Assembly: GCA_900234795.1 (NCBI GenBank)
Contig: LT962688.1
Span: 1,680,001 to 1,712,000 of the forward strand
Direction of reading: 5' to 3'
Length of the DNA: 32,000 nucleotides
From: Methylorubrum extorquens
Lineage (GTDB): Bacteria; Pseudomonadota; Alphaproteobacteria; Rhizobiales; Beijerinckiaceae
Shown: positions 8,701 to 25,848 of the stretch, piece after piece
Position numbering within the stretch: the first letter of the stretch is position 1
Layout of the letters: each line of letters opens with the position of its first letter
Translations under genes and position numbers: made by a program
Notes under the pieces: generated by a model
The model's input: the letters and a program-made list of their open reading frames with translations, nothing else
Told to the model about the DNA's origin: nothing
Databases searched by the model: none

Positions 8701-8780
8701 TTGCCTTAACCCCTTGAATGAAGACCCAGGTCGCCTTCCGAGCTGTTTCCCGTCGTTTTCTTATGTCTCGGACCGGGCCG

Positions 8781-9617: not shown

Positions 9618-9804
9618 GGATTGAGCCTTTCAGGATGGCTTGAGGAAGGTGCCGATTTTGATCTGAGAGCTGACTTCGCCTGAAGCCTCTCTCTCGCTCG
9701 GGGAGAACGAGGCTGATCAGAGAAGATCATGGTGTATGACTTATGTTATTCGAACGGCTAGGGAACGCAAGCAGAAGTTGTTTTTCCGGCCGAACATATA
9801 GCCC

Positions 9805-10657
9805 TCAAGCCACACCGTGCGGACGAGCCCGGGCGGCGAGGGCCTGCGTCACGCGGTCGAGGATGACCGCCACGATCACGATGCCGATGCCCGCTTCGAA
9901 GCCGGCGCCCGCCTCGAGCCGCTGGATCGACTGCCAGACCGCGCGGCCCAATCCGCCGGCACCGATCATCGCCGCAATGACCACCATGGAGAGGGCGAGC
10001 ATCATGGTCTGGTTGACGCCGGCCATGATGGTCGGCAGCGCAAGCGGCAACTGCACCTTGAACAGCTTCTGGGTCGCCGAGCTGCCGAAGGCGTCGGAGG
10101 CCTCGACGAGTTCGCTCGGCACGTTGCGGATGCCGAGCGCCGTCAGCCGGATCACCGGGGGCACTGAGAAGACAATCGTCGCAAAGCAGGCCGAGACGGC
10201 GCCGAGCCCGAAGAAGGGGGAGCGCCGGGATCAGGTAGACGAAGCTCGGCAGCGTCTGCATCATGTCGAGGATCGGCGAGAAGGTCCGCCAAGCCCGTCG
10301 GCTGAGCGCGAACCAGATCCCGACGGGAACGCCGATCACGAGTGCCGCAGCGGTGGCGATGGTGACGAGGACCAGGGTCTCGACCGTCGCCTGCCAGAGC
10401 CGCAGGTTCCACAGGAACAGCAGGCCGACGAGCGTCAGGAGCCCGATCTTGCGACCGCCAGCCCGGTACGCCGCGAAGGCCGCGACCGCGATGCAGAGCC
10501 ACGGCGGGATCGCGACGAGGGCGGTGGTCAGCGTTTCGATCCAGTCGGAGACGGTGCGGCTGACGGCTCGGGTCAGCCAACTGCCATGCTCGGTGAGCCA
10601 GTCGAGGCCGTTGTCACTGAGCGTGTCGAGGGGGAATTTGGGGACGTTCCACTCCAT
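9805..10657 (-). pseudogene. proW: glycine betaine ABC transporter permease, interrupted by a +1-nt frameshift in a G5/C5 run (plus 10216-10220)
   Basis: The N-terminal half (MEWNVPKFPLDTLSDNGLDWL...[15 protein letters not shown]) is in the frame of track ORF 9758..10972. The C-terminal half (..[27 protein letters not shown]..) is in the frame of ORF 9805..10164. Removing one C from GCGCTCCCCCTTCTTCGGG restores ..[31 protein letters not shown].., a canonical permease core. 853 nt = 284 codons + 1. Confidence 0.8.
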
Positions 10658-11901
10658 GTCGGGGCTCCTGACGGCTTTGAGAGGATCGGGGCACCGGCAT
10701 GCGGCTGCGCGTGCGTGCCGGGCCGCGCGGCGAGTGCCTGCACGACGTCGCGGCTGGTGATGGAGCCGATCAGGCGTCCGTTCCGGCCCACGACCGCAAC
10801 GGATTCCTCGGCGGCGACCGTCGCGAGGATGGTGTCCAGCCGGCTGTCCGCCTCGACGACGGATTGTCCGAGATCGAGCAGGCTGGAGAGGGTCTCGGCC
10901 GGCCGGGCGGAGGCGAGCCTCTCGGCGAAGATGCGGCCGACCAGCCGTCCGTCCCCGTCGGCGACGAGCCACGCCCGGCCGCTCGTGCGGTTACCTGCCC
11001 CGCCGAGCGCAGTCCGCGCCTCGGCCACCGTCTGCGTGGGGGCGAGCACGGGGGCGGAGCGATCCGCGACCTGCTCCGCCCGCAGCACGGCGGCGAGATC
11101 GATATGCTCGACGAAGCGCTCGACATAGTCGGTCGCGGGACGGGCCACGATGTCCTCGGGCTGCCCGATCTGCACCACCTCGCCGTCCTTCATCAGGACG
11201 ATGCGGCCGCCGAGTGCGATGGCCTCGTCGAGATCGTGCGAGACGAAGACGATGGTCTTCTTGAGCTTGCGTTGGAGGTCGCGCAGCTCCGCCTGCATGT
11301 CGCGGCGGATCAGCGGGTCGAGGGCGCTGAAGGCCTCGTCCATCAGTAGGATGTCGGCATCGGCGGCGAGCGCCCGCGCGAGGCCCGCCCGCTGCTGCAT
11401 GCCGCCCGACAATTCATTGGGATACTTCGTCTCCCAGCCCTTGAGGCCGACGAGTTCGATGGCCTGCATCGACCGCTCGATCCGCTCCTTGGCCGGGACC
11501 CGCTTGATCTCGAGGCCGAACCCGACATTCCCGAGGATGGTCCGGTTGGGCAGCAGCGCGAAGTGCTGGAAGACCATGCCGAAGGTCTTCTGACGGAAGG
11601 CGAGCAGGTCCTTGCGGCCGAGCCGGGTCACGTCCACCCCGTCCACGACGATCCGGCCGCAGGACGGCTCGACCAGACGGTTCATGCAGCGCAGGAGCGT
11701 CGACTTCCCGGAGCCGGACAGGCCCATCAGGACGAGGATTTCGCCCTCTTCGATGTCGAACGAGATGTCGCGCAATCCGACGACCGCACCGCAGGCGGCG
11801 GCGATGTCGCCCTTGCGCTTCCCCTGGCCGATCAGATCGAGCGCCTTGGAGGGGTTCGAGCCGAATATCTTGCTGATACCTTCAAGATTGATCCGGCCCA
11901 T
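10573..11901 (-). CDS. proV: glycine betaine/proline ABC transporter ATP-binding protein with C-terminal CBS pair
   Basis: 442 aa with Walker A (GLSGSGKST), ABC signature (LSGGMQQRAGLARAL) and Walker B (ILLMDEAFSALD). The low-complexity C-terminal tail overlaps the proW start by 85 nt, and no earlier stop exists in any frame. Confidence 0.9.
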   Translation of the reverse strand: MGRINLEGISKIFGSNPSKALDLIGQGKRKGDIAAACGAVVGLRDISFDIEEGEILVLMGLSGSGKSTLLRCMNRLVEPSCGRIVVDGVDVTRLGRKDLLAFRQKTFGMVFQHFALLPNRTILGNVGFGLEIKRVPAKERIERSMQAIELVGLKGWETKYPNELSGGMQQRAGLARALAADADILLMDEAFSALDPLIRRDMQAELRDLQRKLKKTIVFVSHDLDEAIALGGRIVLMKDGEVVQIGQPEDIVARPATDYVERFVEHIDLAAVLRAEQVADRSAPVLAPTQTVAEARTALGGAGNRTSGRAWLVADGDGRLVGRIFAERLASARPAETLSSLLDLGQSVVEADSRLDTILATVAAEESVAVVGRNGRLIGSITSRDVVQALAARPGTHAQPHAGAPILSKPSGAPTWSGTSPNSPSTRSVTTASTGSPSMAVG

Positions 11902-12400: not shown

Positions 12401-12413
12401 CATCATCGAGTTG

Positions 12414-12516
12414 ATCGCTAGGGTTCCAGCATCTCTTTGATGTGTTCGGTCCGAGAGCGGTTGCCGCGGCGGGAGACATCCGCCCGGATGCACGGCGGGA
12501 TAAAAGCCCGGGAGAC
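12414..12516 (+). promoter_or_regulatory. guanidine-I riboswitch aptamer (ykkC-yxkD leader, subtype 1)
   Basis: Reads GCUAGGGUUCCAGC..UUCGGUCCGAGAGCGG..GCACGGCGGGAUAAAAGCCCGGGAGACC. The blocks CUAGGGUUCC, GGUCCGAGAG and ACGG-CGGGA-AAAAGCCCG-GGAGA match the remembered invariant cores of the ykkC consensus in order and spacing. It is oriented toward the ABC importer and carboxylase genes. Confidence 0.85.
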
Positions 12517-12526
12517 CTCACTAGCC

Positions 12527-12569
12527 AGAGATTGGCAAGGTTAGGTCTTGTACAATCTCTTTCTCTGTT
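12527..12569 (+). terminator. possible expression-platform hairpin with U-rich tail downstream of the guanidine-I aptamer
   Basis: AGAGATTG(12527-12534)/CAATCTCT(12553-12560), with an inner CAAG/CTTG pair, followed by TTCTCTGTT. The switching logic with the aptamer could not be resolved by eye. Confidence 0.35.
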
Positions 12570-12581
12570 GAGAGGGAACGT

Positions 12582-12743
12582 ATGCCCGGCATCAGCCCCC
12601 AGATCGTTTCTCTGACATCAGCTCCCGATCGTCGCCCCGGCGGATCGCACGCCTTGCGCCGCCCGAGGACGGCGCGGGCCGAGATCGCGCGCCTTCGCGG
12701 CCGCTTCGGGGGCAGCACGCGCCTCGTCCCGGTCCGGACGTAA
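12582..12743 (+). CDS. hypothetical 53-codon Arg-rich leader ORF (speculative)
   Basis: ATG at 12582 is preceded by GAGGGA (12572-12577). Product: MPGISPQIVSLTSAPDRRPGGSHALRRPRTARAEIARLRGRFGGSTRLVPVRT. GC3 is about 83%. It is below the track's length cutoff and I recognise no homology. Confidence 0.2.
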   Translation: MPGISPQIVSLTSAPDRRPGGSHALRRPRTARAEIARLRGRFGGSTRLVPVRT

Positions 12744-12784
12744 CGTCCGCGGGCCCGAGCGCCTCACCCCCTTCCAACCTCAGT

Positions 12785-12827
12785 GCCGGCATCCGACGGA
12801 CGGGCTTCTCAGCCCGTCGATGCCGGC
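12785..12827 (+). other. strong bulged hairpin in the operon leader
   Basis: GCCGGCATC-(cgacg bulge)-GACGGGCT-tctc-AGCCCGTCGATGCCGGC, i.e. 17 bp with a 5-nt bulge. It has no U-tract and lies 78 nt before the substrate-binding-protein (SBP) start. Confidence 0.4.
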
Positions 12828-12904
12828 CTGCGCGCAAAATCCGCGGTCGACCCACGGCAAGGGTCGGCCATCCGGTTCCGGCGACGATCCCGAGGAGACG
12901 AGAC

Positions 12905-13915
12905 ATGCGCATCCCGACCCTGATCACCGGCGGCCTCACGCGCCTCCGCCGAAGCCTGTCCGCGCTGACCCTCGCTGCCGGCCTCCTCGCCGCGCCGATG
13001 GCGCAGGCCGCCGAGCCGCTGCGCATCGGCTACAGCGACTGGCCGGGCTGGGTGGCGTGGCAGGTCGCCATCGAGAAGGGCTGGCTCAAGGAGGCCGGCA
13101 TCGACGCCAAGTTCGAGTGGTTCGACTACTCCGCCTCGATGGATGCGTTCTCGGCAGGCAAGCTCGACGCGGTGACCTGCACCAATGGCGACGCCCTCGT
13201 CATGAGCGGCAACGGCGCCCGGAACGTCATGATCCTGCTCACCGACTACTCGAACGGCAACGACATCATCGTCGGCAAGCCGGGGGTGAAGTCGCTGGCC
13301 GACCTCAAGGGCAAGAAGGTCGGGCTCGAAGTCGGCCTCGTCGAGCACCTGCTCCTGATCGACGGCCTGCAGAAGGCCGGGATCAAGGAGAGCGACGTGA
13401 CGCTGGTCAACGCCAAGACCAACGAGACGCCGCAGATCCTCGCCTCCGGCGACGTCGCGGCCATCGGCGCGTGGCAGCCGATCGCCGGCCAGGCGATGCG
13501 CGGCGCGGCGGGTGCCCGTCCGCTCTACAGCTCCGCCGACCGGCCGGGCCTGATCTACGACGTGGTCACGGTGACGCCCGCGAGCCTCGCCGCGCGCCGT
13601 GCCGACTGGATCAAGCTCGTCGGCCTGTGGGACCGGGTCGTCGGCTACATCACGGACCCGAAGACGCAAGGCGACGCGGTCGCCATCATGGCGGCCAAGG
13701 TCGGGGTGGAGCCCGCCGTCTTCACCCGCTTCCTCAAGGGCACCAAGCTGCTGACGCTGGCCGAGGGCCGCGCGGTGATGAAGGATGCCGACGGGTTCGG
13801 CTCGCTCTACGGTTCGAGCCGGCACGCCGATGCCTTCAACGTCAAGTTCGAGGTCTACAAGACCCCGCAGGACGTAAAGGCCGCCATCGACCCCGCCCTC
13901 ACCGACGGCAAGTGA
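12905..13915 (+). CDS. ABC transporter periplasmic substrate-binding protein, NitT/TauT (NMT1-like) family, urea-carboxylase-region type; likely guanidine uptake
   Basis: 336 aa with RBS GAGGAGA 7 nt upstream and a signal peptide (..RLRRSLSALTLAAGLLAAPMAQA). The mature part (..LRIGYSDWPGWVAWQVAIEKGWLKEAGIDAKF..) is typical of this family. It is the first large gene after the guanidine-I riboswitch. Confidence 0.88.
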   Translation: MRIPTLITGGLTRLRRSLSALTLAAGLLAAPMAQAAEPLRIGYSDWPGWVAWQVAIEKGWLKEAGIDAKFEWFDYSASMDAFSAGKLDAVTCTNGDALVMSGNGARNVMILLTDYSNGNDIIVGKPGVKSLADLKGKKVGLEVGLVEHLLLIDGLQKAGIKESDVTLVNAKTNETPQILASGDVAAIGAWQPIAGQAMRGAAGARPLYSSADRPGLIYDVVTVTPASLAARRADWIKLVGLWDRVVGYITDPKTQGDAVAIMAAKVGVEPAVFTRFLKGTKLLTLAEGRAVMKDADGFGSLYGSSRHADAFNVKFEVYKTPQDVKAAIDPALTDGK

Positions 13916-13925
13916 GGGCTTGAGG

Positions 13926-14993
13926 ATGCGCGCGCCGCTGCCTCAGCCCCCTCCCGAGAGGGACGCCGTTCCGGCGGTCGCGGTCGCGGTCGCCCCGCTC
14001 CCGCCGGTGGCGGACGCCGCCCCGGTCGCCGGGCGGGTGCGGCTCTCCTGGGTCGGCGCGCCGCGCCCGCTGACCCGGCGTCGGCGCGTGGCGCTCACCC
14101 TGCTCTCCTTCCTGCTGCCGCTCGGGCTGTGGGCGGCGGTCTCCTACCTGCCCTTCCTCTGGCACCCGCTGGTCGAGGTCACGAATCCCGGCGACGTCGC
14201 CTGGATGGAGCCCGGCATGCGGGTGCCGCGGGCGGCGTTTTCCGAGGAGGTCGCGGCGGCCCAGGGCGCGGGGACGGCTGTGCCCGAGGGACGCCCGGCC
14301 AACCCGGTCTACCTGCCCGCGCCGCACGAGGTCGCGGTGGCCTTCTGGACCTCGCTCACGGCGCCGCCACCGCAGCGCGACACGATCTGGCTGCCCGCGA
14401 GCCTCTGGCACTCGATCCAGATCATTTTTTGGGGCTTCACGATCTCGTCGCTCGTCGGCGTGCCGCTCGGCATCCTGTGCGGGGCGCAACCGACGATCGC
14501 CCGGCTGACCGAGCCCGTGATCGAGTTCGTGCGCTACCTGCCCGCCCCCGCCTTCGGCGCGCTGATGGTCGCGATCCTGGGGATCTACGACGGGCCGAAG
14601 ATCGCCATCATCGTCATCGGCACCTTCTTCCAGCAGGTGCTCGTCATCGCCAACACCACGCGAAGGGTCGATCCGCTGCTGATCGAGGCCGCACTCACCA
14701 TGGGTTCGCGCAACCTGCGCCTGATCCGGCGGGTGATCGTGCCGGCGGTGCTGCCGCAGATCTACCGCGACCAGCGCATCCTGCTCGGCTGGGCCTGGAC
14801 CTACCTCATCGTCGCCGAGCTGATCGGCACCTCGTCCGGCATCACCTTCTTCATCACGCAGCAGGCCCGCTACCAGCATTTCGACAACGTCTACGCCGCG
14901 ATCCTGGTGATCGGCCTCGTCGGCATCGCTACCGACATCGCCCTGGCCCTGCTCGGCCGCCGCCTGTTCCCCTATGCGAGGGCCGAGGCATGA
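13926..14993 (+). CDS. ABC transporter permease (NitT/TauT family)
   Basis: It carries the permease EAA-type region (..[29 protein letters not shown]..). Start is at ATG 13926 (GAGGG 7 nt upstream) or TTG 13920. The stop overlaps the next start (ATGA at 14990-14993). Confidence 0.85.
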
Positions 14994-15940
14994 GAGACGG
15001 CATGAGCGCGTCCGCTCCCATCCCGCTGACGGCCGAGCCGTGTGATTACCGCACCCAGTGCGAGCCCGTCCGCGCCCGCTTCGACCGGCTGAAGGCCCGC
15101 GACGTCGCCCTGCGGGTCGAGGGCCTCGGCAAGGTGTTTCGCAACGCGGACGGCGCCGAGACCGTGGCGCTCCGTGGCATCGATCTCGTCACCCACCGCC
15201 GCGAGTTCCTCTGCGTCGTCGGACCCTCGGGCTGCGGCAAGTCCACCTTCGTGCGCATCCTGGCCGGGCTCGAGACCAAGAGTTCGGGCAGCGTCAGCGT
15301 CGGCGGCGTGCCGGTCTCCGGCCCCGGCGCCGACCGGGGCATGGTGTTCCAGGGTTACACCCTGTTTCCCTGGCTCACGGTCAAGCGCAACGTCGCCTTC
15401 GGCCTGGAGGAGAACGGCGAATCCCGGCATGTGGCCGAGCGCGAGGCGCTGCAATGGCTGGCGCTCATCGGGCTGGAGCGCTTCGCCGACGCCTATCCGC
15501 ACCAGCTCTCCGGCGGCATGAAGCAGCGCGTGGCCATCGCCCGCGCGCTCGCCATGCGCCCGCGTATCCTCTTGATGGACGAGCCGTTCTCGGCGCTCGA
15601 CACCCAGTCGCGGGCCAGGATGCAGGCCTACCTGATCGAGATCTGGCGCAAGATCGACATCACCATCGTCTTCATCACCCACGACCTCGACGAGGCTATT
15701 TACCTCGCCGACCGCATCCTCGTCCTGAAGGCCCATCCCGGCGAGGTCGAGGAGCTGATCGAGGTGCCGGTGCCGCGGCCGCGCCATCCGAGCCAGAGCC
15801 TGACGCCGGAATTCCGCGCCACCCGCGCCCGGCTCGATGCGCTGATCCACCCCGGCGAGGCGGAGGCCGACGGCCCGGCCGATCTCGGTGGCCTCGACAT
15901 GGTGACCCGGATGGCGAGCGTGGGGGACGAGGTCGAATGA
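14990..15940 (+). CDS. ABC transporter ATP-binding protein (NitT/TauT family)
   Basis: This is the C-terminal 316 aa of track ORF 14129..15940, starting [10 protein letters not shown]. It has Walker A (GPSGCGKST), signature ([15 protein letters not shown]) and Walker B ([12 protein letters not shown]). Confidence 0.9.
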
Positions 15941-16737
15941 GCGCCCTCCCCACCCTCCCTTTGCTTTGGTCCGACCGCACCTGGGAGGAGATCCCCGGTG
16001 ACCTCGAAGCGGTCGCGGGGGCTGCGCTCCTGCCCATCGGCGCCACCGAGCAGCACGGGCCGCATCTCGGCTGCGGCATGGATTTCGTGCTGGCCGACCT
16101 CCTCTGCCGCGCGGTCTCGGCGCGCACCCGTGTGCCGATGCTGCCGGCCCTCCCCTACGGCTGCTCGCTCGGCCATTCCCGGCGCTGGCCCGGCACCATC
16201 GCCCTCGACCCTGTCGTGATGACCGAACTCGTCCGGCAGATCGGAAGCCAAGCCTACCATTCGGGCGTGCGCCGCCTGTTCCTCGTCAACGCCCACGTCA
16301 CCAACGCCGCCCCCTTACGCTGCGCGCTCGAACTGCTGCGGGCGACGCATGACGACCTGATGGTTGCGCTCGTCAACACCGCGACCGTCAGCGAGCGGGT
16401 ACGCACGGCCCATTTCATCGACGCCGAGGATTGGCACGCCAACCGGGCCGAGACCGCGCTGATGCAGGCGCAGGCCCCCGCCCTCGTGCGGGAAGACCGC
16501 ATCGTCGACGCCGATGACCCGGACCGTACCCAAAACCTCGTCTTCGCCCACCCGGTCAACCGCACCAGCCGCAACGGCGTCACCGGCTCCCCCTCGCAGT
16601 CGAATGCGGCGGAGGGCGCCGAACTGTTCGCCTGGATGGTCGAGGACCTGACCGCCCTCGTCCGCCGCGGGCTCACCGAGACCCCGCCCCTTCCCCATTC
16701 CTACGACGGCCCCGCCGTCCCCATGCCAGGAGCCTGA
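15937..16737 (+). CDS. creatininase-family metal-dependent amidohydrolase
   Basis: 266 aa starting [18 protein letters not shown]. The ATG overlaps the ATPase stop (ATGA at 15937-15940). Motifs ..[14 protein letters not shown].., ..FLVNAHVTN.. and ..[10 protein letters not shown].. match the creatininase (PF02633-type) fold as I remember it. Confidence 0.8.
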
Positions 16738-16738
16738 A

Positions 16739-18112
16739 ATGGGCCACGCGAACGACATCGATCCGCAGGTGCGCGCCGTGCAGGAGGATCTGCGCGCGAA
16801 GGGCGTGAAATACGTCATCGGCGCCTATGTCGACATCCACGGCGCGCAGAAGGCCAAGGTGGTGCCGATCGACCACCTGCCGCAGATGGCGGCGGGCTCC
16901 GAGCGCTATACCGGCTACGCCCTCGACGGCCTGGGCCAGGCGCCGAACGAGGACGAGCTCGCCTCGGTCCCGGATTTCTCGCAGGTCATCCAGCTCCCCT
17001 TGGAGAGCAAGCTCGCCTGGGCGCCGGCCGACCTCACCTTCCAGGGCAAGCCCTACCCGCTCTCGACCCGCGTCGCCCTCAAGAACGTCCTGGCTCAGGC
17101 CGAGGCGATGGGCTTCGGCTTCAATCTCGGCATCGAGTGCGAAATCTTCCTGCTGCGCCAAGCCGCCGACGGTTCGCTGCACACGCCGGTGGCGGACGAT
17201 AAGCTGGTGAAGCCCTGCTACGACGTGCGCGGCTTCATCGACAACTTCTCCTGGCTCGACAAGGTCGCGACCACGATCAACGATCTCGGCTGGGATCTGT
17301 ACTCGTTCGACCATGAGGATGCGAACGCGCAGTTCGAGTTCGACTTCCAGTACGCCGATGCGCTGACCATGTGCGATCGGCTGACCTTCTTCCGCATGAT
17401 GACCAAGCATTACGCGAAGGAGGAAGGGCTCATCGCCACGATGATGCCCAAGCCCTTTGCCGACCGCACCGGCAACGGTGCCCACTTCAACATGTCGCTC
17501 TCCGACCGCGAGACCGGCCGCAACCTGTTTGCCTGCGCGCCCGGCGAGGATCCCCGCGGCCTCGGCCTCACCGAGACCGGCTACCACTTCATCGGCGGCG
17601 TGCTGCGCCACGGCCGGGCGCTCTGCGCGGCCTTCGCGCCGACCGTGAACAGCTACAAGCGCCTCGTGCGCCAGGGCGCGATGGCGGGCTTCTCCTGGGC
17701 GCCGGTGTTCAACTCCTACGGCTCGAACAACCGCACCAATTCGGTGCGCGTGCCGGCCGGCGGCGGGCGCTGCGAGAGCCGCAACGCGGACGGCGCGGTC
17801 AATCCCTACCTCGCCGCCGCCCTGGTGCTCGCGGCCGGGCTGGAGGGCGTGCGCGAGCGGATCGACCCCGGCCAGCCCAATGAGGACAACCTCTACGCGC
17901 TGAGCGACGGCGAGCGCCGGGCGCGCGGCATCGCGTTCCTGCCCCAGACCCTGCAGGAGGCGGTCGATGCCTTCGCCGCCGATCCCCTGGTCGAGGCGAC
18001 GCTGGGCTCAGGCCTGCGCGAAGAGTTCATCCGGACCAAGCGCGAGGAGTGGAACGCCTACCATCTCACGGTGAGCCCGTGGGAAATCGAGCGCTACAGC
18101 CACCTGTTCTAG
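16739..18112 (+). CDS. glutamine synthetase family (GlnT/type III-like, gamma-glutamyl-amine ligase-like) protein
   Basis: 457 aa, starting 1 nt after the creatininase stop. GS catalytic-domain motifs are present: ..GIECEIFLL.., ..NGAHFNMSL.., ..[28 protein letters not shown]... Confidence 0.85.
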
Positions 18113-18124
18113 GCGGAGGCTCCC

Positions 18125-18496
18125 ATGAAGACCGTCATCGCCTTCGCGAACAGCACCGCCGAGCCCTCGACCTACCGGCCGGCGCCCGAGCGCATCCTGG
18201 CCGGAGACCCGGTCCAGACCGCGACGCTTCACTTCACCAGCGCCGACGGACGGTTCTCCGCCGGCACTTGGGCGGCGGAGCGCGGGACGTGGCGGGTCGT
18301 CTTCACCGAGAGCGAGTTCTGCCACCTGCTCGAAGGGGTGATCGTCGTCACCGACGAGGCCGGGACGCAGACCACCTTCCGGGCCGGCGACGCCTTCGTC
18401 TCGCCGGCCGGCTTCACCGGCACCTGGGAGATCGTCGAGCCCGCCCGCAAGCTCTTCGCCTTCTACGAGGTGCCATCCGCGCCCGACCACCCGTGA
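18125..18496 (+). CDS. cupin domain protein (DUF861/cupin_3-like)
   Basis: 123 aa with RBS GGAGG upstream. ..GTWRVVFTESEFCHLLEGVIVVTDEAGTQTTFRAGDAFVSPAGFTGTWEIVEPARK.. is a single-barrel cupin pattern. Confidence 0.7.
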   Translation: MKTVIAFANSTAEPSTYRPAPERILAGDPVQTATLHFTSADGRFSAGTWAAERGTWRVVFTESEFCHLLEGVIVVTDEAGTQTTFRAGDAFVSPAGFTGTWEIVEPARKLFAFYEVPSAPDHP

Positions 18497-18508
18497 CCCT
18501 TCCATCCT

Positions 18509-18622
18509 CGCCCTCATCCTGAGGTGCCCGCGTCAGCGGGCCTCGAAGGAGGGCTCCAGCCAGCCGCGCGATGTCTGGAGCCCTCCTTCGAGGCCGTTTC
18601 GCGGCACCTCAGCATGAGGGCG
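18509..18622. repeat. 114-bp nested palindrome (REP/MITE-like) inside the operon
   Basis: The outer arms 18509-18528 / 18603-18622 pair at 19 of 20 positions. The inner arms GGCCTCGAAGGAGGGCTCCAG (18539-18559) / CTGGAGCCCTCCTTCGAGGCC (18575-18595) pair at 21 of 21, with a 15-nt loop. I verified this base by base. Confidence 0.85.
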
Positions 18623-18657
18623 AGCGGGGGACAGAACTTTCAAACCTCTTCTGGCCT

Positions 18658-18717
18658 GCCGGGACGGCCCGGCCGCGACAGGGCTTTTGGACCGGGACGA
18701 CCCGGCCCCATCGGAGA
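18658..18717 (+). promoter_or_regulatory. candidate guanidine-II (mini-ykkC) riboswitch: two ACGR-tetraloop hairpins followed by the SD
   Basis: GCCGGG-ACGG-CCCGGC (18658-18673), an 18-nt linker, CCGGG-ACGA-CCCGG (18692-18705), then GGAGA (18713-18717) and ATG at 18726 of the first DUF1989 gene. Confidence 0.7.
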
Positions 18718-18725
18718 CATGCGCA

Positions 18726-19538
18726 ATGTCGGACGAAGCGAGCCAGATTGCGGAAAACCGCCGCCGCTACGAGGAGCTGAAGCAGGCGGGCCAGGGCCAC
18801 GCCCCGCGCGCCCTGCCCGGCCCGAGCCCGCGCGGGCCCGCGCCGCTCGACGAAGGCGCGATCCTCCACCGCGAGATCATCCCCGGCGGCTGGTACTGGA
18901 CCACCGCCCTGAAGGCCGGGGAGGCGATCCGCATCGGCCTCGACCATGGCCCGTCGAGCGTCGCCCTCGTCGCCTGGTCGGCCGCCGACACCAGCGAGCG
19001 GCTGAATTACGCCGACACCGTCAAGGTGCAGTGGACGGCCGCCCTCGCCAAGGGCCGGGTGCTGTTCTCCGATATGGGCCGGGTGATGCTCTCGCTGGTC
19101 GAGGATTCCTGCGGGGCGCACGACGCGCTCGTCGGCGGCTCCAATGCGGCCTCGAACGCCGCGCGCTATGCCGGCGGGCCGCATCGCAATACCCGCGACA
19201 ATCTCGTTCTGGCCGCCCTCAAGAGCGGGCTGGAGCGGCGCGACATCCCTCCTTGCGTCTCGTTCTTCGCCCCCGTCGTCGTCGGGCCTGAGGGTCGCTT
19301 TGCCTGGAATGCCGCCGGCCGGACCACGGGCGACTTCGTGGATCTGCGCGCCGAGATGGACCTGATCGTCACCCTCTCGAACTGCCCCCATCCCCTCGAT
19401 CCAGCGCCCGATTACGCGCCGAACCCGGTGGCGGTGACCCGTTTCCGCGCCCCGCCCCCGGCAATGGACGACCTCTGCCGCACCGCCACGATCGAGGCCG
19501 TGCGCGGCTTCGAGAACAACGCCGCCGCCGGCTTCTGA
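18726..19538 (+). CDS. urea-carboxylase-associated family protein (DUF1989), carboxyguanidine deiminase subunit-like
   Basis: Track ORF 18687.. trimmed to MSDEASQIAENRRRYEEL (GGAGA 8 nt upstream), 270 aa. It pairs with a second DUF1989 paralogue and lies directly upstream of the carboxylase. Confidence 0.85.
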   Translation: MSDEASQIAENRRRYEELKQAGQGHAPRALPGPSPRGPAPLDEGAILHREIIPGGWYWTTALKAGEAIRIGLDHGPSSVALVAWSAADTSERLNYADTVKVQWTAALAKGRVLFSDMGRVMLSLVEDSCGAHDALVGGSNAASNAARYAGGPHRNTRDNLVLAALKSGLERRDIPPCVSFFAPVVVGPEGRFAWNAAGRTTGDFVDLRAEMDLIVTLSNCPHPLDPAPDYAPNPVAVTRFRAPPPAMDDLCRTATIEAVRGFENNAAAGF

Positions 19539-19552: not shown

Positions 19553-20173
19553 ATGACCGACACCGTGACCACGCTCTTCGACGCCATCGTGCCCGCGCAG
19601 GCGCCGTTCTCCACCCTCGTGCGGGCCGGCCAGACCATCCGCATCAAGGACAGCCAGGGCTGCCAGGCCGTCGACACCCTGTTCTACCGGGCCGACGACC
19701 TGGGCGAGCGCTACTCGTCCCAGGATACGGTGCGCGCACAGGGCGCGGCCTACGTCACCACCGGCACGCGGGTGATGTCGAACGAGGGCCGGGTGATGCT
19801 CACCGTCACCGCCGATTCCTGCGGGCGCCACGACACCTCGGCCGGGGCCTGCTCCTGCGAGAGCAACACCGTCCGCTTCGGCCACGCCACCAAGTATCTC
19901 CATGCCTGCCGCGAGAACTTTGCGCTGGAAGTCGCAAAGTACGGCCTGTCGAAGCGCGACATCGTGCCGAACATCAACTTCTTCATGAACGTGCCGATCG
20001 AGCAGGATGGCGGGCTGGCCATCGTCGACGGCGTCTCCTCGCCCGGCGACTATGTCGAGCTGCGGGCCGAGATGGACGTGATCTGCGTGATCTCGAACTG
20101 CCCGCAGATCAACAACCCCTGCAACGGCTTCAACCCCACGCCGATCCGCGTGACCGTCCGCGGCGAGGCTTGA
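19553..20173 (+). CDS. urea-carboxylase-associated family protein (DUF1989), second carboxyguanidine deiminase subunit-like
   Basis: 206 aa. It is a paralogue of the previous gene (shared ..GDYVELRAEMDVICVISNCP.. / ..GDFVDLRAEMDLIVTLSNCP..), with 14-nt and 4-nt intergenic gaps. Confidence 0.85.
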   Translation: MTDTVTTLFDAIVPAQAPFSTLVRAGQTIRIKDSQGCQAVDTLFYRADDLGERYSSQDTVRAQGAAYVTTGTRVMSNEGRVMLTVTADSCGRHDTSAGACSCESNTVRFGHATKYLHACRENFALEVAKYGLSKRDIVPNINFFMNVPIEQDGGLAIVDGVSSPGDYVELRAEMDVICVISNCPQINNPCNGFNPTPIRVTVRGEA

Positions 20174-20177
20174 GCGC

Positions 20178-23100
20178 ATGTTCGCCAAGGTTCTGGTCGC
20201 CAATCGCGGCGAGATCGCCGCCCGCGTCGTGCGCACATTGCGGCGCATGGGCATCGCCTCGGTCGCCGTCTACTCCGACGCTGACCGCTTCACGCCGGGC
20301 GTACTCGCCGCCGACGAGGCCGTGCGCCTCGGCCCCGCGCCGGCCGCGCAGAGCTATCTCGACGTCGAGGCCGTCGTCGCCGCCTGTAAGGCGACCGGCG
20401 CAGAGGCCGTCCATCCCGGCTACGGCTTCCTGTCCGAGAATGTCGGCTTCGCCGAGCGGCTGGCGGCGGAAGGGATCGTTTTCATCGGTCCGCGCCCGGA
20501 GCACCTGCGCGCCTTCGGCCTCAAACACACGGCCCGCGAGCTGGCCAAAGCCAGCGGCGTCCCGCTCCTGCCCGGCACCGACCTCTTGCCCGATCTTGAG
20601 ACGGCGCTGAGCGCAGCCGAGGCGATCGGCTATCCGGTGATGCTCAAGAGCACGGCGGGCGGCGGCGGCATCGGGATGCAGCTCTGCCATTCGGGCCAGG
20701 AGCTGGCCGAGCGCTTCGCTGCGGTCGAGCGCACCGCGCGGGCCAGCTTCGGCGACGCCCGCGTCTATCTCGAGCGCTTCGTGGCGCAGGCCCGCCATGT
20801 CGAGGTGCAGATCTTCGGCGACGGGCGCGGCCGCGTCGTGGCGCTCGGCGAACGCGACTGTTCGCTCCAGCGCCGGAACCAGAAGGTGATCGAGGAGACG
20901 CCCGCCCCCGGCCTCTCCGACGCCGTGCGCGCCCGGCTCCACGCCGCGGCGGTGGCTTTGGGGGAGAGCGTCGCCTACGCCTCGGCCGGCACCGTCGAGT
21001 TCATCTACGATCCCACGCGCGAGGATTTCTCGTTCCTCGAAGTGAACACCCGGCTCCAAGTGGAGCACCCGGTGACGGAGGCGGTGTTCGGCATCGACCT
21101 CGTGGAATGGATGGTGCGCCAGGCCGCGGGCGAAGACCCGATCACGGCGGCCGGGCCGCTCGTGCCGAGGGGCGCGGCGATCGAGGCCCGGCTCTACGCC
21201 GAGATCCCGCACGCGAATTTCTCGCCGAGCGCCGGCCTGCTGACCGAGGTGCGCTTCCCCGAGACCGCCCGCATCGACGGCTGGATCGCCACCGGCACCG
21301 AGGTCACCCCGTTCTACGACCCGATGCTCGCCAAGATCATCGTCACCGGCACCGACCGTCCGGCGGCTTTGGCCGAACTCCGGGCAGCGCTGGCCGACAC
21401 CGCCATCTCCGGTATCGAGACCAACCTCGACTACCTCCGCACCATTGCCGCCTCCGACCTGCTGGCGAGCGGGCGCGTCGCGACCACGGCCCTGCGCGAC
21501 CTCGCCTATGCTCCCAAAAGCATCGAAGTGCTGCTGCCGGGCGCCCAGTCCAGCCTTCAGGAGCTGCCCGGCCGGCTCGGCCTGTGGGAGGTCGGCGTGC
21601 CGCCGAGCGGGCCGATGGATGCCCGCTCCTTCGCCCAGGCCAACGCCCTCGTCGGCAACGGGCAGGACACCTGCGCCCTCGAACTCACCGTCTCGGGCCC
21701 GACGCTGCGCTTCCACACGGATGCGCGGGTGGCCCTCGCGGGCGCTGCGATGCGGCTCACCCTCGACGGTGAGGCGCGCCCGCACGGGCAGGCTTTCTCG
21801 GTGAAGGCGGGCCAGACGCTCGCCATCGGCGCGATCGAGGGGCCGGGCCAACGCGCCTATCTCGCCCTGCGCGGCGGCCTCGCGGCGCCCGTGGTGCTCG
21901 GCTCGCGCGCGACCTTCGCGCTGGGCGCCTTCGGTGGCCACGCCACCGGCGTCCTGAAGGCCGGCGACGTGCTCCATCTCGGCGATGCGCTGGAGGTCAC
22001 CGCCGCCCCGCCCGAGCCCGCGCCGCTGACGCAGGATTGGGAGATCGGCGTCGTCTACGGCCCGCACGGCGCGCCGGACTTCTTCCAGGAGGCCGATATC
22101 GCCGATCTGTTCTCGGCGTCCTACGAGGTGCATTTCAACTCGGCCCGCACGGGCGTGCGCCTGATCGGCCCGACGCCGCGCTGGGCGCGGACCGACGGCG
22201 GCGAGGCGGGCTTGCACCCCTCGAACCTGCACGACAACGCCTACGCCCTCGGCGCCATCGACTTCACCGGCGACATGCCGATCCTGCTCGGCCCCGACGG
22301 GCCGAGTCTCGGCGGCTTTGTCTGCCCCGCGGTGATCGCCCGCGACGAGCTGTGGAAGATGGGCCAGCTCCGGCCCGGCGACACGGTGCGCTTCCGTCCC
22401 CTGGCCCGGCCGGAGGACGCGCTCGCCGCCCCGGCCCTGATCGGTGGCGCGGGCAGCCTGCCCGGCTCGCCCATCCTCGCCCGCGACGAGACCGGCCTGG
22501 TCCCCGTCGCCTATCGCCGCCAGGGCGACGACAACCTCCTCGTCGAGTACGGCCCGATGGCCCTCGATATCGGCTTGCGGCTGCGGGTCCACCTGCTCGC
22601 CGAGGCGGTGCGCGCCGCGCGGCTGCCCGGTCTGACCGACCTGACGCCCGGCATCCGCTCGCTTCAGATCCACTACGACGGGACGGCGCTGCCGCGCTCG
22701 CGCCTGCTCGGCAGCCTGCGCGAGATCGAGGCCGGATTGCCGCCGGCGGAGGCCGTCAGCGTCCCGAGTCGTACCGTTCACCTGCCGCTCTCGTGGAACG
22801 ACCCGCAGGCGGAACTGGCCATGCGCAAGTACCAGGAGTTGGTGCGCCCCAACGCACCCTGGTGCCCCTCGAACATCGAGTTCATCCGCCGCATCAACGG
22901 CCTGCCCGACGAGGCGGCGGTGCGCAGCATCATCTTCGATGCGAGCTACCTCGTGATGGGGCTCGGCGATGTCTATCTCGGCGCGCCGGTCGCCACCCCG
23001 GTCGATCCGCGCCACCGCCTTGTGACCACCAAGTACAACCCGGCCCGCACCTGGACGCCGGAGAACGCGGTCGGGATCGGCGGTGCCTATCTATGCATCT

Positions 23101-23708
23101 ACGGCATGGAGGGGCCGGGCGGGTACCAGCTGTTCGGACGCACGATCCAGGTCTGGAACACGTGGCGGACCACCCGCGAATTCGTGCCCGGCCATCCCTG
23201 GCTGCTGCGGCCCTTCGACCGCATCCGCTTCTTCCCCGTCAGCCATGACGAGCTCACCGAGGCCCGCGCCGCCTTTCCGCACGGCGCCTATCCGATCCGG
23301 ATCGAGGACGGCACGTTCTCCTACGCCGAGCACCGAATGATGCTCGCGGGCAACGCCGCCGAGATCGAGCAGGCGGGGGCGCGCCAGAGGGCGGCCTTCG
23401 CGGCCGAGCGCGAGCGCTGGAAGGCGGAAGGCCTCGACAGCTTCGTCGCCGACGAGGCGGTGGCGGCGGAGGCCGCCGAGATCCCGCCGGGCTGCGAGGG
23501 CGTGCCGACCACCGTGCCTGGCAATGTCTGGAAGGTTCTGGTCGGCGAGGGCGAGACCGTAGCCGCCGGCCAGACGGTGGCGATCCTCGAATCGATGAAG
23601 ATGGAGGTGGCGGTCACCGCCCCCGTCGGCGGCCGGGTCCGCGAGATCCGGGCCCAGCCCGGCCGCACCCTGCGCGGCGGCGACCTCGTCGCCATCCTCG
23701 AGACCTGA
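20178..23708 (+). CDS. biotin-dependent urea/guanidine carboxylase (biotin carboxylase + allophanate-hydrolase-subunit-like CT domains + BCCP)
   Basis: 1176 aa. It has an N-terminal ATP-grasp biotin carboxylase (MFAKVLVANRGEIAARVV...), central KipA/KipI-like domains, and a C-terminal biotinyl domain with ..ILESMKMEVAV... The riboswitches and DUF1989 pair argue that guanidine is the substrate. Confidence 0.92.
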   Translation: MFAKVLVANRGEIAARVVRTLRRMGIASVAVYSDADRFTPGVLAADEAVRLGPAPAAQSYLDVEAVVAACKATGAEAVHPGYGFLSENVGFAERLAAEGIVFIGPRPEHLRAFGLKHTARELAKASGVPLLPGTDLLPDLETALSAAEAIGYPVMLKSTAGGGGIGMQLCHSGQELAERFAAVERTARASFGDARVYLERFVAQARHVEVQIFGDGRGRVVALGERDCSLQRRNQKVIEETPAPGLSDAVRARLHAAAVALGESVAYASAGTVEFIYDPTREDFSFLEVNTRLQVEHPVTEAVFGIDLVEWMVRQAAGEDPITAAGPLVPRGAAIEARLYAEIPHANFSPSAGLLTEVRFPETARIDGWIATGTEVTPFYDPMLAKIIVTGTDRPAALAELRAALADTAISGIETNLDYLRTIAASDLLASGRVATTALRDLAYAPKSIEVLLPGAQSSLQELPGRLGLWEVGVPPSGPMDARSFAQANALVGNGQDTCALELTVSGPTLRFHTDARVALAGAAMRLTLDGEARPHGQAFSVKAGQTLAIGAIEGPGQRAYLALRGGLAAPVVLGSRATFALGAFGGHATGVLKAGDVLHLGDALEVTAAPPEPAPLTQDWEIGVVYGPHGAPDFFQEADIADLFSASYEVHFNSARTGVRLIGPTPRWARTDGGEAGLHPSNLHDNAYALGAIDFTGDMPILLGPDGPSLGGFVCPAVIARDELWKMGQLRPGDTVRFRPLARPEDALAAPALIGGAGSLPGSPILARDETGLVPVAYRRQGDDNLLVEYGPMALDIGLRLRVHLLAEAVRAARLPGLTDLTPGIRSLQIHYDGTALPRSRLLGSLREIEAGLPPAEAVSVPSRTVHLPLSWNDPQAELAMRKYQELVRPNAPWCPSNIEFIRRINGLPDEAAVRSIIFDASYLVMGLGDVYLGAPVATPVDPRHRLVTTKYNPARTWTPENAVGIGGAYLCIYGMEGPGGYQLFGRTIQVWNTWRTTREFVPGHPWLLRPFDRIRFFPVSHDELTEARAAFPHGAYPIRIEDGTFSYAEHRMMLAGNAAEIEQAGARQRAAFAAERERWKAEGLDSFVADEAVAAEAAEIPPGCEGVPTTVPGNVWKVLVGEGETVAAGQTVAILESMKMEVAVTAPVGGRVREIRAQPGRTLRGGDLVAILET

Positions 23709-23792: not shown

Positions 23793-23912
23793 ATGATGCA
23801 GCAGATCCACCGCACCCTCACCGCGATCCTCGGTCTGGTCGTGCTCGGCCTCCAGGCCAAGGCTGCCGGACGGCTGCCGCAGGGTGAGCGGGGCCGGGAG
23901 ACGCCGCGATAG
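23793..23912 (+). CDS. hypothetical 39-aa single-pass membrane micro-protein (speculative)
   Basis: GGAGA lies 6 nt upstream of ATG. Product: MMQQIHRTLTAILGLVVLGLQAKAAGRLPQGERGRETPR. GC3 is about 87%. It sits in the otherwise empty 305-nt gap between the carboxylase and the allophanate hydrolase. Confidence 0.25.
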   Translation: MMQQIHRTLTAILGLVVLGLQAKAAGRLPQGERGRETPR

Positions 23913-24012
23913 GCCTTCCGGCCGCCGGGCCATCAGGCTCGGGCCGCCGGAGCCATCCCCCCTTCGAATTTCGGGCCGCGTGCTGCCGCCCCTTCACGGA
24001 CGTGAGAGATCG

Positions 24013-25848
24013 ATGCCGGTTCCCGCCTTCCCGAGCCTCAGCGCGCTCCACGCCGCCTATGCCGAGGGGCTCTCGCTCGAGGTGGTTCTGGCCGAGATCG
24101 ACCGCCGCATCGCTGTTGCCGACGATCCCGGCATCTTCCTCGCGCGGGTGCCGGCGGCGGAGATGCAGGCCGCCGCCCGCGCGCTGGGCCCCTTCGACCC
24201 CGCCAACAAACCGCTCTGGGGCGTGCCTTTCGCGGTAAAGGACAATGTCGACGTGGCGGGCCTGCCCACCACCGCCGCCTGCCCGGATTTCGCCTACACG
24301 CCGCAGGCGACCGCCCCGGCGGTCGAGCGCCTGCTCGCGGCCGGCGCGATCCTCGTCGGCAAGACCAATCTCGACCAGTTCGCCACCGGGCTGGTCGGTG
24401 TGCGCACGCCCTATCCGGTGCCGAAGAACGCCATCGATCCCACGATCGTGCCGGGCGGCTCCTCGTCCGGCTCGGCGGTGGCGGTGGCGCGCGGCCTCGT
24501 CACCTTCGCGCTCGGCACCGACACGGCGGGTTCGGGCCGGGTGCCGGCCGGCCTCAACAACATCGTCGGGCTCAAGCCCTCCCTCGGCAGCGTCTCGGGC
24601 CGCGGCGTGGTCCCGGCCTGCCGCACGCTGGACACCCTCTCCGTCTTCGCCGGCACCGTGACGGAGGCCGATGTGGTCTTTCGGATCATGGCCGGATACG
24701 ATCCGCAGGATCCGTATTCGCGCGCCCTGCCCGTTCCACCCCGCCCCGGTGCCCTGCCCCCCGGCCTGAGGGTCGGCGTGCCGGATGCGGCGAGCCTGAT
24801 CTTTGCCGGCGACGCGCTCTCGGCGAATGCCTTCGACGGGGCACTCGCCGACCTGGACACGGTGATCGGCGGCGCGGCGGTGACGGTCGATCTCGCGCCC
24901 TTCTTCGCGGTGGCGGGGCTTCTCTATGCCGGCCCCTGGGTGGCCGAGCGCTATCAGGCGATCCGCGGTTTCATCGAGGAGCGCCCGGAGGCCCTGCACC
25001 CGACCACGCGGGCGATCATCGGCGCGGCCACCGGTCACTCGGCGGCGGATGCCTTCGCCGGCCTCTACCGCCTCGCCGAACTGCGCCGGGCGACGGAAGT
25101 CGTCTGGCGCGGAATCGACGTGCTCGTGGTGCCGACCTATCCGCGTCCGCGCCGCGTCGCCGACCTCGCCGCCGACCCGGTCGGCCCCAACAGCGAGCTC
25201 GGCACCTACACCAACTTCGTCAACCTGCTCGATCTCTGCGCCCTCGCGGTGCCGGGGCGCTTCCGGGCCGACGGCCGCCCGTCCGGCGTCACGCTGATCG
25301 CGCCGCGCGGGGCCGACGGCCTCATCGCCGAACTCGGCGCCCGCCTCCACGCGGCGGCCGGCGGCACCCTCGGAGCGAGCGGCGTGCCGATCCCGGCGGA
25401 GGCCGCATCGCCGGGGGATCGCGCGCAAAGGGGAGATCGCGCGCAAGGGGACGAGATCGAGATCGCGGTGGTCGGCGCGCACCTGTCCGGCCTGCCGCTC
25501 AACGGCGAGCTGACCGCCCGTGGCGCCCGCTTCCTGCGCGCCGTCCGCACGACGCCGGATTACCGCCTGCACGCGCTGCCCGGCGGGCCGCCGGCCCGGC
25601 CCGGCCTGATCCGCGTCGCGCCCGGGTCGGGCCATGCGATCGAGACCGAGGTTTGGGCGCTGACACCGGACGCCTTCGGCTCCTTCGTGGCGGGGATTCC
25701 CGCGCCGCTCGCGATCGGCACGCTGTCGCTGGCCGACGGCACGGCGCCGAAGGGATTTTTGGCGGAAGCGGCCGGGCTGACGGGGGCGCGCAACATCAGC
25801 GACCACGGCGGCTGGCGCGCCTATCTCGCCTCCGTAACAGCGACGTAG
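24013..25848 (+). CDS. atzF: allophanate hydrolase
   Basis: Track ORF 23884.. trimmed to MPVPAFPSLSALHAAYAEG, 611 aa. It has the amidase signature (..GGSSSGSAVAVARG..GTDTAGSGRVPA..) and the C-terminal AtzF-type domain. Confidence 0.9.
   Translation: MPVPAFPSLSALHAAYAEGLSLEVVLAEIDRRIAVADDPGIFLARVPAAEMQAAARALGPFDPANKPLWGVPFAVKDNVDVAGLPTTAACPDFAYTPQATAPAVERLLAAGAILVGKTNLDQFATGLVGVRTPYPVPKNAIDPTIVPGGSSSGSAVAVARGLVTFALGTDTAGSGRVPAGLNNIVGLKPSLGSVSGRGVVPACRTLDTLSVFAGTVTEADVVFRIMAGYDPQDPYSRALPVPPRPGALPPGLRVGVPDAASLIFAGDALSANAFDGALADLDTVIGGAAVTVDLAPFFAVAGLLYAGPWVAERYQAIRGFIEERPEALHPTTRAIIGAATGHSAADAFAGLYRLAELRRATEVVWRGIDVLVVPTYPRPRRVADLAADPVGPNSELGTYTNFVNLLDLCALAVPGRFRADGRPSGVTLIAPRGADGLIAELGARLHAAAGGTLGASGVPIPAEAASPGDRAQRGDRAQGDEIEIAVVGAHLSGLPLNGELTARGARFLRAVRTTPDYRLHALPGGPPARPGLIRVAPGSGHAIETEVWALTPDAFGSFVAGIPAPLAIGTLSLADGTAPKGFLAEAAGLTGARNISDHGGWRAYLASVTAT

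Follow-up and report, generated by a model that had tools for sequence, protein, structure and literature searches.

What does a creatininase-family hydrolase do beside a glutamine synthetase-like ligase in a gene cluster under guanidine control? The question is raised by a stretch of 32,000 nucleotides (nt) from Methylorubrum extorquens (GenBank LT962688.1, positions 1,680,001 to 1,712,000; G+C ~68 %), referred to here as the window, in which the genes for the hydrolase (CRN, 15937..16737, + strand) and the ligase (GS, 16739..18112, + strand) lie downstream of a guanidine-I riboswitch and an ATP-binding cassette (ABC) importer and upstream of the genes of the carboxylase route of guanidine degradation. 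Free guanidine has recently been recognized as a widespread metabolite and nitrogen source and, to our knowledge, its degradation is known to proceed in two ways, by biotin-dependent carboxylation or by means of a nickel hydrolase. A preliminary description of the window had joined CRN, GS and a small cupin protein into a trio, thought to be hard-wired into one riboswitch-controlled operon and to act on guanidino compounds. From a comparison of related loci we conclude that the CRN–GS pair is very probably a dedicated guanidine module that has so far gone uncharacterized. Its chemistry can be proposed with much less assurance: our working hypothesis, possible but somewhat doubtful, is that guanidine may be activated by ATP-dependent γ-glutamylation and that the resulting acylguanidine may then be cleaved by CRN.

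As the preliminary description had anticipated, no functional account of these proteins was found in the searchable full-text literature, and 'creatininase' may already have been listed, as a name only, with the genes associated with ykkC. A full-text search for 'glutamylguanidine' in several spellings returned no papers, and a recent review of guanidine names creatininase only in a reference title.

Conservation of the CRN–GS pair

Related loci were collected by a scan with a CRN alignment, one genome per species, in which at least 579 of at least 600 matched stretches encode relatives. The best 80 loci were taken (given below by their L numbers) and their synteny was read from a tblastn table, the counts that follow being restricted to loci with a CRN identity of at least 54 %. 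GS adjoins CRN on the same strand in 66 of 67 informative genomes; this figure derives from a scripted count of 65/70, to which L053 was added (GS overlaps CRN by 12 nt) and from which L063, L066 and L069 were dropped for too little downstream sequence, leaving L020 as the single real exception. The importer is present at 43 of 52 loci, and DUF1989 or carboxylase genes lie within 10 kb of CRN in 28 of the 42 loci that are well flanked. Median gaps are 27 nt between the ATPase gene and CRN and 58 nt between CRN and GS. The hosts include Alphaproteobacteria (Methylorubrum, Hyphomicrobium, Rhodopseudomonas), Betaproteobacteria (Methylobacillus, Methylotenera, Thiobacillus, Aquabacterium) and Gammaproteobacteria (Thiomicrorhabdus, Hydrogenovibrio, Methylophaga, Thalassolituus, Psychromonas), and the pair also occurs in Verrucomicrobiota, Planctomycetota and Binatia. 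Median identities to the window are 72 % for GS, 67 % for the permease and 63 % for CRN, and 55 % for the carboxylase and 48 % for allophanate hydrolase; the two DUF1989 queries gave medians of 35 and 39 %, cross-hits between the two paralogues included. The pairing itself holds down to identities of 40 % (CRN) and 44 % (GS).

Judged by gene order, the adjacency of hydrolase and ligase is far beyond chance, and the conserved unit is the CRN–GS pair, near-obligate and co-diverging, plus the importer. The trio does not survive as a unit, the cupin gene following GS only in three of the best 80 loci (L001, L002 and L048), all from Methylobacterium or Methylorubrum. For the pair, the suggested tie to guanidine is borne out by the linkage to the importer and to DUF1989/carboxylase genes just given, and by guanidine-I riboswitches at ~15 other loci. 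No CRN–GS fusion protein was found among long GS-like representatives, one of which, P0313, is a GATase–GS fusion belonging to another family.

Several further genes recur in the neighbourhood. In L028 (12140–14049) a membrane protein of the FA_desaturase family and a TIM-barrel protein resembling xylose isomerase are encoded right after a match to a guanidine-II motif regular expression, and both recur beside the pair in L047 (5120–8675) and L096 (2931–4744); in Thiomicrorhabdus-type loci they are joined by an MBL-fold protein and an EamA transporter. Verrucomicrobiota (L049, 6247–9956; L137, 10281–13059; L095, 14212–16665) carry, between the importer and CRN–GS or alongside them, genes for the alpha subunit of a Rieske oxygenase, for an FGE-sulfatase-like protein and for the TIM-barrel protein, and such genes are found near the module in about 13–20 loci. 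An apparent urea carboxylase without DUF1989 in Thiomicrorhabdus and Hydrogenovibrio was considered as support for a urea product and was rejected: the locus ends within the carboxylase gene there, and DUF1989 could lie just beyond its edge.

The pair in divergent metagenome loci

The strongest evidence comes from a divergent clade of pairs in metagenome loci, whose CRN proteins are ~40–59 % identical to each other and ~40 % identical to that of the window. As we read these loci, they tie the CRN–GS pair itself to free guanidine, because the guanidine-I aptamer (RF00442) precedes the pair there without importer or carboxylase genes; the Rfam scores are 63.9 bits in L088, 83.9 bits in L094 and 70.1 bits in L091. 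In L088 the riboswitch (2658–2753) is followed by CRN (2900–3652), GS (3639–5021) and a TetR gene, and in L094 (1374–4659) the riboswitch (1374–1491) is followed by GS, CRN and a Peptidase_C26 hydrolase resembling PuuD; neither importer nor carboxylase genes occur within the short contigs of these two loci. The GTG start of the PuuD-like γ-glutamyl hydrolase gene overlaps the stop codon of CRN by GTGA, an arrangement of translational coupling, and a urease beta-subunit gene lies divergently upstream (476–1384, − strand). When PuuD-like hydrolases, MOSC proteins and urease were sought in the other loci, each was found once only.

In the third locus, L091 (1929–3943), a DIOX_N-type 2-oxoglutarate-Fe(II) (2OG-Fe(II)) oxygenase is encoded between the riboswitch (1929–2031) and the CRN and GS genes. 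Homologues of this oxygenase with 51–54 % identity lie near the module in L019 (5619–6656, − strand), L072 (3827–4723) and L128 (12569–13576, − strand), and its Pfam architecture is that of the guanidine-releasing ethylene-forming enzyme. A further arrangement is seen in L089 (44–3537), where the gene order is Cupin_3 (28 % identical to the cupin of the window), MOSC-domain protein, CRN, GS, so that a second, independent cupin gene lies upstream of a pair; among the members of the MOSC family are reductases that act on N-hydroxylated amidines and guanidines.

Riboswitches and a candidate protein regulator

Riboswitches were sought with a covariance model built from 14 aptamers, together with Rfam checks, an earlier regular expression having found only part of them. 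By this model guanidine-I precedes the importer–CRN–GS module in ~12 species or contigs, lying directly before it in the window, L001, L018, L024, L025, L028, L039, L044, L072, L077, L105 and L119 and further upstream in L021. Elsewhere the DUF1989/carboxylase genes stand under the control of guanidine-I or guanidine-II, the latter being placed before DUF1989 or carboxylase genes in L002, L004, L011, L019 and L048. In seven loci that were tested with Rfam, no known riboswitch was found.

Unbiased clustering of open reading frames brought out a second potential means of control. A NikR-family protein of ~150 amino acids (RHH + NikR_C) is encoded right after GS, or divergently from the module, in 36 of 80 loci (for example L011, 12473–12937; and, on the − strand, L009, 9359–9943; L002, 4070–4588; L048, 6007–6543). 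Its gene never co-occurs with a riboswitch before the module in the 80 loci, and the same is true of the metagenome loci. The nickel ligand Cys95 is replaced in 36/36 members, and His76, His87 and His89 are variable. The distribution makes this protein a candidate regulator replacing the riboswitch; if confirmed, it would be a guanidine-sensing protein, of use alongside the riboswitches that already serve as genetic tools.

The importer and the cupin

The importer genes of the window, all on the + strand, encode an NMT1/SsuA-type binding protein (12905..13915; PF09084 + PF13379), a permease (13920..14993; PF00528, 79 bits; true start codon uncertain) and an ATPase (14990..15940; PF00005, 104 bits). 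The importer belongs to the same family as the guanidine importer GimABC, and the family-invariant Trp and Asp residues are present in the binding protein, which scores 143 bits against TIGR03427 ('urea-carboxylase-associated'), where the cut-off is 334. GimA binds guanidine with a dissociation constant of 97 nM (PMC12704784).

The cupin gene (18125..18496, + strand) encodes a Cupin_3 (EutQ-like) protein of 123 amino acids (PF05899, 84.7 bits versus a gathering score of 23.5). Homologues with 63–70 % identity occur in Acidisoma, Hyphomicrobium and a Steroidobacteraceae genome in unrelated contexts, and the best solved structure, 3bcw, is itself uncharacterized. On its distribution the cupin is an optional, lineage-specific accessory with no assignable role.

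The hydrolase

CRN, which is 100 % identical to a Methylorubrum extorquens protein, matches the Creatininase family (PF02633, 211 bits) and scores 112.4 bits against the creatininase equivalog TIGR04448 (EC 3.5.2.10), below the cut-off of 235. A predicted structure of medium confidence (pLDDT, the predicted local distance difference test, 75.5) gave structural matches limited to the expected creatininases, with a template-modelling (TM) score of 0.74 and 26 % identity to 1q3k. Equivalents of four of the five metal ligands (Glu34, His36, Asp45 and His120) and of the catalytic His178 are kept. The fifth ligand, Glu122, is replaced by Thr in the window, and in 78/78 relatives its position is taken by Thr, Ser or Gly and never by Glu; the Trp154 position is occupied by Ala and the Trp174 position by Ala or Gly. 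These two tryptophans are mutated in PDB entries 3a6e–3a6h. In creatininase they sandwich creatinine. The CRN proteins also have invariant motifs of their own, namely a His at the Gly80 position, DDPDRT and NGVTG-P. Because the TIGR04448 cut-off is failed and Glu122, Trp154 and Trp174 are replaced, CRN is, on residue evidence, not a creatininase.

This bears on an existing annotation. The likely orthologue of CRN in strain AM1 (MEXAM1_RS19285 / META1p4099, 801 bp) is reported to be up 4.89 log2-fold in methanol-tolerant evolved strains, in a transcriptome paper of 2025 whose model assigns it to 'creatinine degradation' (PMC12797532); the genes beside it are not listed there. As the residue analysis contradicts a creatininase role, that annotation is probably wrong.

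Might the pair prepare a substrate for the carboxylase route? The importer would then take up a creatinine-like, acyl- or alkyl-guanidine, CRN would open or cleave it, GS would handle the amine or acid and the guanidine would pass to the carboxylase. The family membership of CRN is consistent with such a role, although the creatinine-binding tryptophans and Glu122 are absent from it. The binding protein is likewise of a subfamily distinct from the TIGR03427 type (143 versus 334), and some loci, such as L014, have a second, different ABC system beside the DUF1989 genes; the importer family, however, includes a proven nanomolar guanidine binder (PMC12704784). Oxygenases that could trim substituted guanidines recur near the pair (Rieske, 2OG-Fe(II) and FA_desaturase-like), yet the minimal and commonest context is without an oxygenase. 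The aptamer that controls the module recognizes free guanidine, and the pairs of L088 and L094 have no importer or carboxylase genes within their short contigs. We therefore regard pre-processing as unlikely, and its creatinine-type form, which the preliminary description had raised, is disfavoured by the lost residues, by the TIGR04448 score (112 versus 235) and by an RNA that senses free guanidine.

A role in protection or repair also appears improbable to us. Here the pair would buffer guanidine by reversible γ-glutamyl trapping, or would remove by-products such as aminoimidazolone adducts and mis-made acylguanidines. Guanidine is toxic above millimolar concentrations, and cells balance its import, export and degradation (PMC12704784); moreover, the linkage of the pair with the importer is closer than that with the catabolic genes, and a ligase together with an acylguanidine hydrolase could make a buffer cycle. 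Such a futile cycle would, however, burn ATP at considerable cost, no exporter is consistently linked to the pair, and in L094 the PuuD-like hydrolase and the neighbouring urease gene point to throughput, not storage.

The ligase

GS matches PF00120 (293 bits) and passes TIGR03105 (641 bits versus a cut-off of 469.6). Among solved structures it matches those of GmaS best (9qur, 378 bits; 7cql, 329 bits), with true glutamine synthetases at ~232 bits. When the residues of 65 orthologues were mapped onto RhGmaS (PMC7948447), all of its glutamate, Mg and catalytic residues (Asp177, Glu186, Arg312) were found to be kept in 65/65; among the ATP contacts, Tyr174, Tyr191, Ser239, Arg312 and Arg317 are kept and Gln175, Trp189 and His237 are replaced. 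The substitutions Q175S, N188D, W189F, A48'T and H237N are invariant in all 65, and the same signature is found in the divergent clade. The ammonium residues of glutamine synthetase, Asp50' and the Glu-flap, are gone, Thr48' and Trp300 standing in their place in 65/65, whereas canonical glutamine synthetases have Asp and Glu. The methylamine pocket of RhGmaS consists of Tyr147, Gln175, Asp177, Glu179, Glu186, Asn188 and Lys30' (PMC7948447). In 65/65 orthologues Gln175 of this pocket is replaced by the smaller Ser and Asn188 by the more acidic Asp, and the other five residues are kept. By these residues GS is neither an ordinary glutamine synthetase nor a standard GmaS, and it is a probable ATP-dependent γ-glutamyl ligase of the GmaS clade.

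The same residues bear on the proposal that GS merely captures nitrogen, trapping NH3, or methylamine from methylguanidine, as glutamine or γ-glutamylmethylamide while CRN has a separate, minor role. TIGR03105 is named 'type III glutamate-ammonia ligase', the closest structures are those of GmaS, many of the host taxa are methylotrophs and RhGmaS accepts several amines (PMC7948447). The replacement of Asp50' and the Glu-flap by Thr48' and Trp300 nevertheless disfavours capture of NH3, a role that the preliminary description had kept in reserve, and the loss of Gln175 and Asn188 in 65/65 orthologues argues against methylamine. Genes for N-methylglutamate synthase and dehydrogenase are not adjacent in the window or in related loci, and nitrogen capture would leave unexplained the near-obligate adjacency and co-divergence with CRN, including the pair alone under a riboswitch. 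This explanation seems to us quite remote. That the function of the pair has nothing to do with guanidine and that it simply travels beside nitrogen-scavenging genes, as might be argued from the 14 of 42 well-flanked loci without DUF1989/carboxylase genes within 10 kb and from the seven tested loci without an Rfam riboswitch, is very improbable indeed, given RF00442 before the pair alone in three divergent loci and before the importer–pair module in ~12 more, and a synteny that is consistent across at least four phyla.

Proposed pathway

The reading that we prefer is the glutamylation-type route, which had been put forward in the preliminary description for the trio and which the comparative evidence favours with the pair as its unit. 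None of the three proteins matches the carboxylase, DUF1989 or allophanate hydrolase families, in agreement with the view expressed there that they stand outside the carboxylase route. A GS-like ligase together with a hydrolase is the signature of γ-glutamylation pathways (PuuA/PuuD, IpuC/IpuF), and the carboxylase route itself activates guanidine by N-acylation. On this reading CRN–GS would be a γ-glutamylation pathway in which both the class of substrate and the partner hydrolase are new. In the proposed scheme GS, with ATP and glutamate, would acylate guanidine to γ-glutamylguanidine, and acylation would lower the pKa of the guanidinium and turn its carbon into an electrophile, the effect that carboxylation has in the known route. 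CRN would then hydrolyse the activated guanidino group, giving either NH3 and γ-glutamylurea, which would subsequently yield glutamate and urea, or glutamine and urea directly. In L094 the Peptidase_C26 enzyme would split γ-glutamylurea into glutamate and urea. Urease could take over the urea, as could the carboxylase together with allophanate hydrolase.

Several considerations weigh against this scheme. Most genomes carry the pair beside a complete carboxylase route, so that it looks redundant, and a riboswitch lies directly upstream in only a minority of modules. Guanidinium (pKa ~13.6) is a poor nucleophile, and a creatininase-type attack on the acyl carbon would undo the work of the ligase in a futile cycle. 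A GS-like ligase is present at all loci, but the PuuD-type Peptidase_C26 partner is found in L094 alone. Finally, Ser175 and Asp188 of GS were considered as a unique guanidinium signature, a notion that is weakened by their occurrence in canonical glutamine synthetases; the pocket argument for guanidine binding is weak because these enzymes share Ser/Ala175 and Asp188 and because both positions contact ATP in RhGmaS.

In its fullest form the hypothesis is that CRN–GS constitutes a third enzymatic route for guanidine, proceeding via γ-glutamylguanidine, requiring ATP and glutamate but neither nickel nor biotin, which would be present in at least four phyla and controlled either by the guanidine-I riboswitch or by a NikR-derived protein that lacks the nickel site and possibly senses guanidine. 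We put this forward as more doubtful than its central chemical step. If true, a guanidine-switched pair outside both known routes would add a third chemistry, and would account for a block of labels, 'creatininase' and 'type III glutamine synthetase', that hundreds of genomes probably carry in error. Inferences from genomes about the capacity to use guanidine would change as well, for instance from those of methylotrophs, sulfur oxidizers and soil Verrucomicrobiota. The system is directly testable, with two soluble enzymes, cheap substrates and, in Methylorubrum extorquens, a genetically tractable host.

Organization of the window

The guanidine-I aptamer of the window (12407..12516, + strand) is a full-length match to RF00442 (74.8 bits versus a cut-off of 63) and scores 92.3 bits with our own covariance model, R1. 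A long, GC-rich leader of ~390 nt (12517–12904) separates it from the first start codon; the same spacing is found in M. rhodesianum (L001), and no terminator-like site was called within the leader. The ATPase gene overlaps the stop codon of the permease gene and the start codon of CRN by ATGA, at 14990–14993 and 15937–15940, exactly as the preliminary description had it. The gaps reported there were likewise confirmed by reading the junctions: the TGA of CRN (16735–16737) is followed after one base by the ATG of GS at 16739, and the TAG of GS (18110–18112) is separated from the ATG of the cupin gene at 18125 by the 12-nt spacer GCGGAGGCTCCC. The overlapping stops and starts suggest a single transcript. 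The family assignments made earlier for the hydrolase, the GS-like protein, the cupin, the importer and the catabolic genes are all upheld by Pfam and NCBIfam scores.

The tight packing claimed for the cluster is true from the importer through the cupin gene and ends there. A spacer of 229 nt (18497–18725) separates the cupin stop codon from the first DUF1989 start codon, and it contains a long palindromic hairpin (~18507..18625), resembling a repetitive extragenic palindrome or miniature inverted-repeat transposable element (REP/MITE-like), and a guanidine-II (mini-ykkC) riboswitch (18656..18705, + strand; RF01068, 41 bits versus a cut-off of 32), the latter just 5' of a GGAGA Shine–Dalgarno sequence and the ATG at 18726. 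For the region 18494–18730 the folding energy is −144 kcal/mol (z = −8.7), and the arms of the hairpin were confirmed separately. Neither the hairpin nor the second riboswitch figures in the preliminary description. The hairpin belongs to a repeated element, with five matching places in Methylobacterium bullatum NZ_LR743510.1; it is absent from the equivalent position in M. rhodesianum L001, and may act as a terminator or RNA stabilizer. Because a repeated hairpin and a separate guanidine-II riboswitch precede the catabolic genes, the window is best described as holding two guanidine-controlled units, and the idea of a single operon into which the trio and the catabolic genes are hard-wired is not upheld. 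As predicted from these features, the first unit is the guanidine-I riboswitch, the GimABC-type importer, CRN, GS and the lineage-specific cupin.

The second unit, on the same evidence, is the guanidine-II riboswitch with the known carboxylase route. Its genes, all on the + strand, encode a UAAP1-type DUF1989 protein, one subunit of the carboxyguanidine deiminase (18726..19538; PF09347, 175 bits; TIGR03425, 280 bits versus a cut-off of 206), a UAAP2-type DUF1989 protein, the second subunit (19553..20173; PF09347, 233 bits; TIGR03424, 329 bits versus a cut-off of 285), the biotin-dependent urea/guanidine carboxylase (20178..23708; TIGR02712, 1778 bits) and allophanate hydrolase (23884..25848; TIGR02713, 781 bits; PF01425 + PF21986).

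Upstream of both units, genes for a soxBDAG-type heterotetrameric sarcosine oxidase, a GbdR-like AraC/DJ-1 regulator and an ABC transporter for glycine betaine occupy 548–11901 on the − strand, with 5763–7157 on the + strand. These soxBDAG/betaine genes, ~10 kb upstream, are a separate betaine/sarcosine module, and no link between it and the guanidine genes was found in the window. No creatinase was found among the genes of the window, as had been stated before. Downstream of the guanidine cluster lie genes for a DUF4062 protein (28652–29620, − strand) and an IS3-family transposase (rve, HTH_21, HTH_Tnp_1; 30548–31777, − strand).

Comparison with known systems

The creatininase of P. putida (1j2t, 1q3k, 3a6d) shares its fold (TM 0.74) and Glu34, His36, Asp45, His120 and His178 with CRN. 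Creatinine, the substrate of this archetype, is a cyclic acylguanidine; the archetype also binds 1-methylguanidine. CRN is unlike it in its 26 % identity, its TIGR04448 score below the cut-off, the change of Glu122 to Thr, Ser or Gly and of Trp154 and Trp174 to Ala or Gly, and its own motifs. GmaS (7cql, 9qur), structurally closest to GS, has in common with it a non-acidic residue at 48' (Ala or Thr) in place of Asp50', the Trp300 flap and Asp177, Glu186 and Arg312. GS departs from GmaS in 65/65 orthologues (Gln175 to Ser, Asn188 to Asp, Trp/Tyr189 to Phe and His237 to Asn) and in lying beside CRN, not beside N-methylglutamate pathway genes. The cyanobacterial importer GimABC is, like that of the window, a NitT/TauT-family ABC system under guanidine-I riboswitch control (PMC12704784). 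The enzymes encoded downstream in the window are CRN and GS, in contrast to the arginase-family nickel enzyme with its maturases of the GimABC/GdmH system.

The GS-like ligases of the Puu and Ipu pathways, GmaS and the aniline and naphthylamine ligases resemble GS in being GS-fold, ATP-dependent enzymes in which the glutamate, Mg and ATP sites are intact and the ammonium residues are gone. The Puu and Ipu pathways also combine ligase and hydrolase in an operon, as the CRN–GS loci do, L094 even with a Peptidase_C26 enzyme of the PuuD family. CRN is a creatininase-family metalloenzyme, whereas their hydrolases are cysteine enzymes of the class-I amidotransferase type, and CRN–GS further differs in its guanidine riboswitch and in having no oxidation step in the minimal module. 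We know of no γ-glutamylation system that uses guanidine. The carboxylase route (carboxylase, CgdAB and allophanate hydrolase) adjoins CRN–GS in most genomes and is likewise under guanidine-riboswitch control. CRN–GS is unlike it in having no enzyme homology with it, in its proposed acyl donor, glutamate versus bicarbonate/biotin, and in occurring also without carboxylase genes nearby. The proposed chemistry would nonetheless be formally parallel, an ATP-driven N-acylation followed by hydrolysis of the activated guanidine. GS would take the place of the carboxylase and CRN that of the DUF1989 deiminase, the sequence being completed by a γ-glutamyl hydrolase, urease or allophanate hydrolase.

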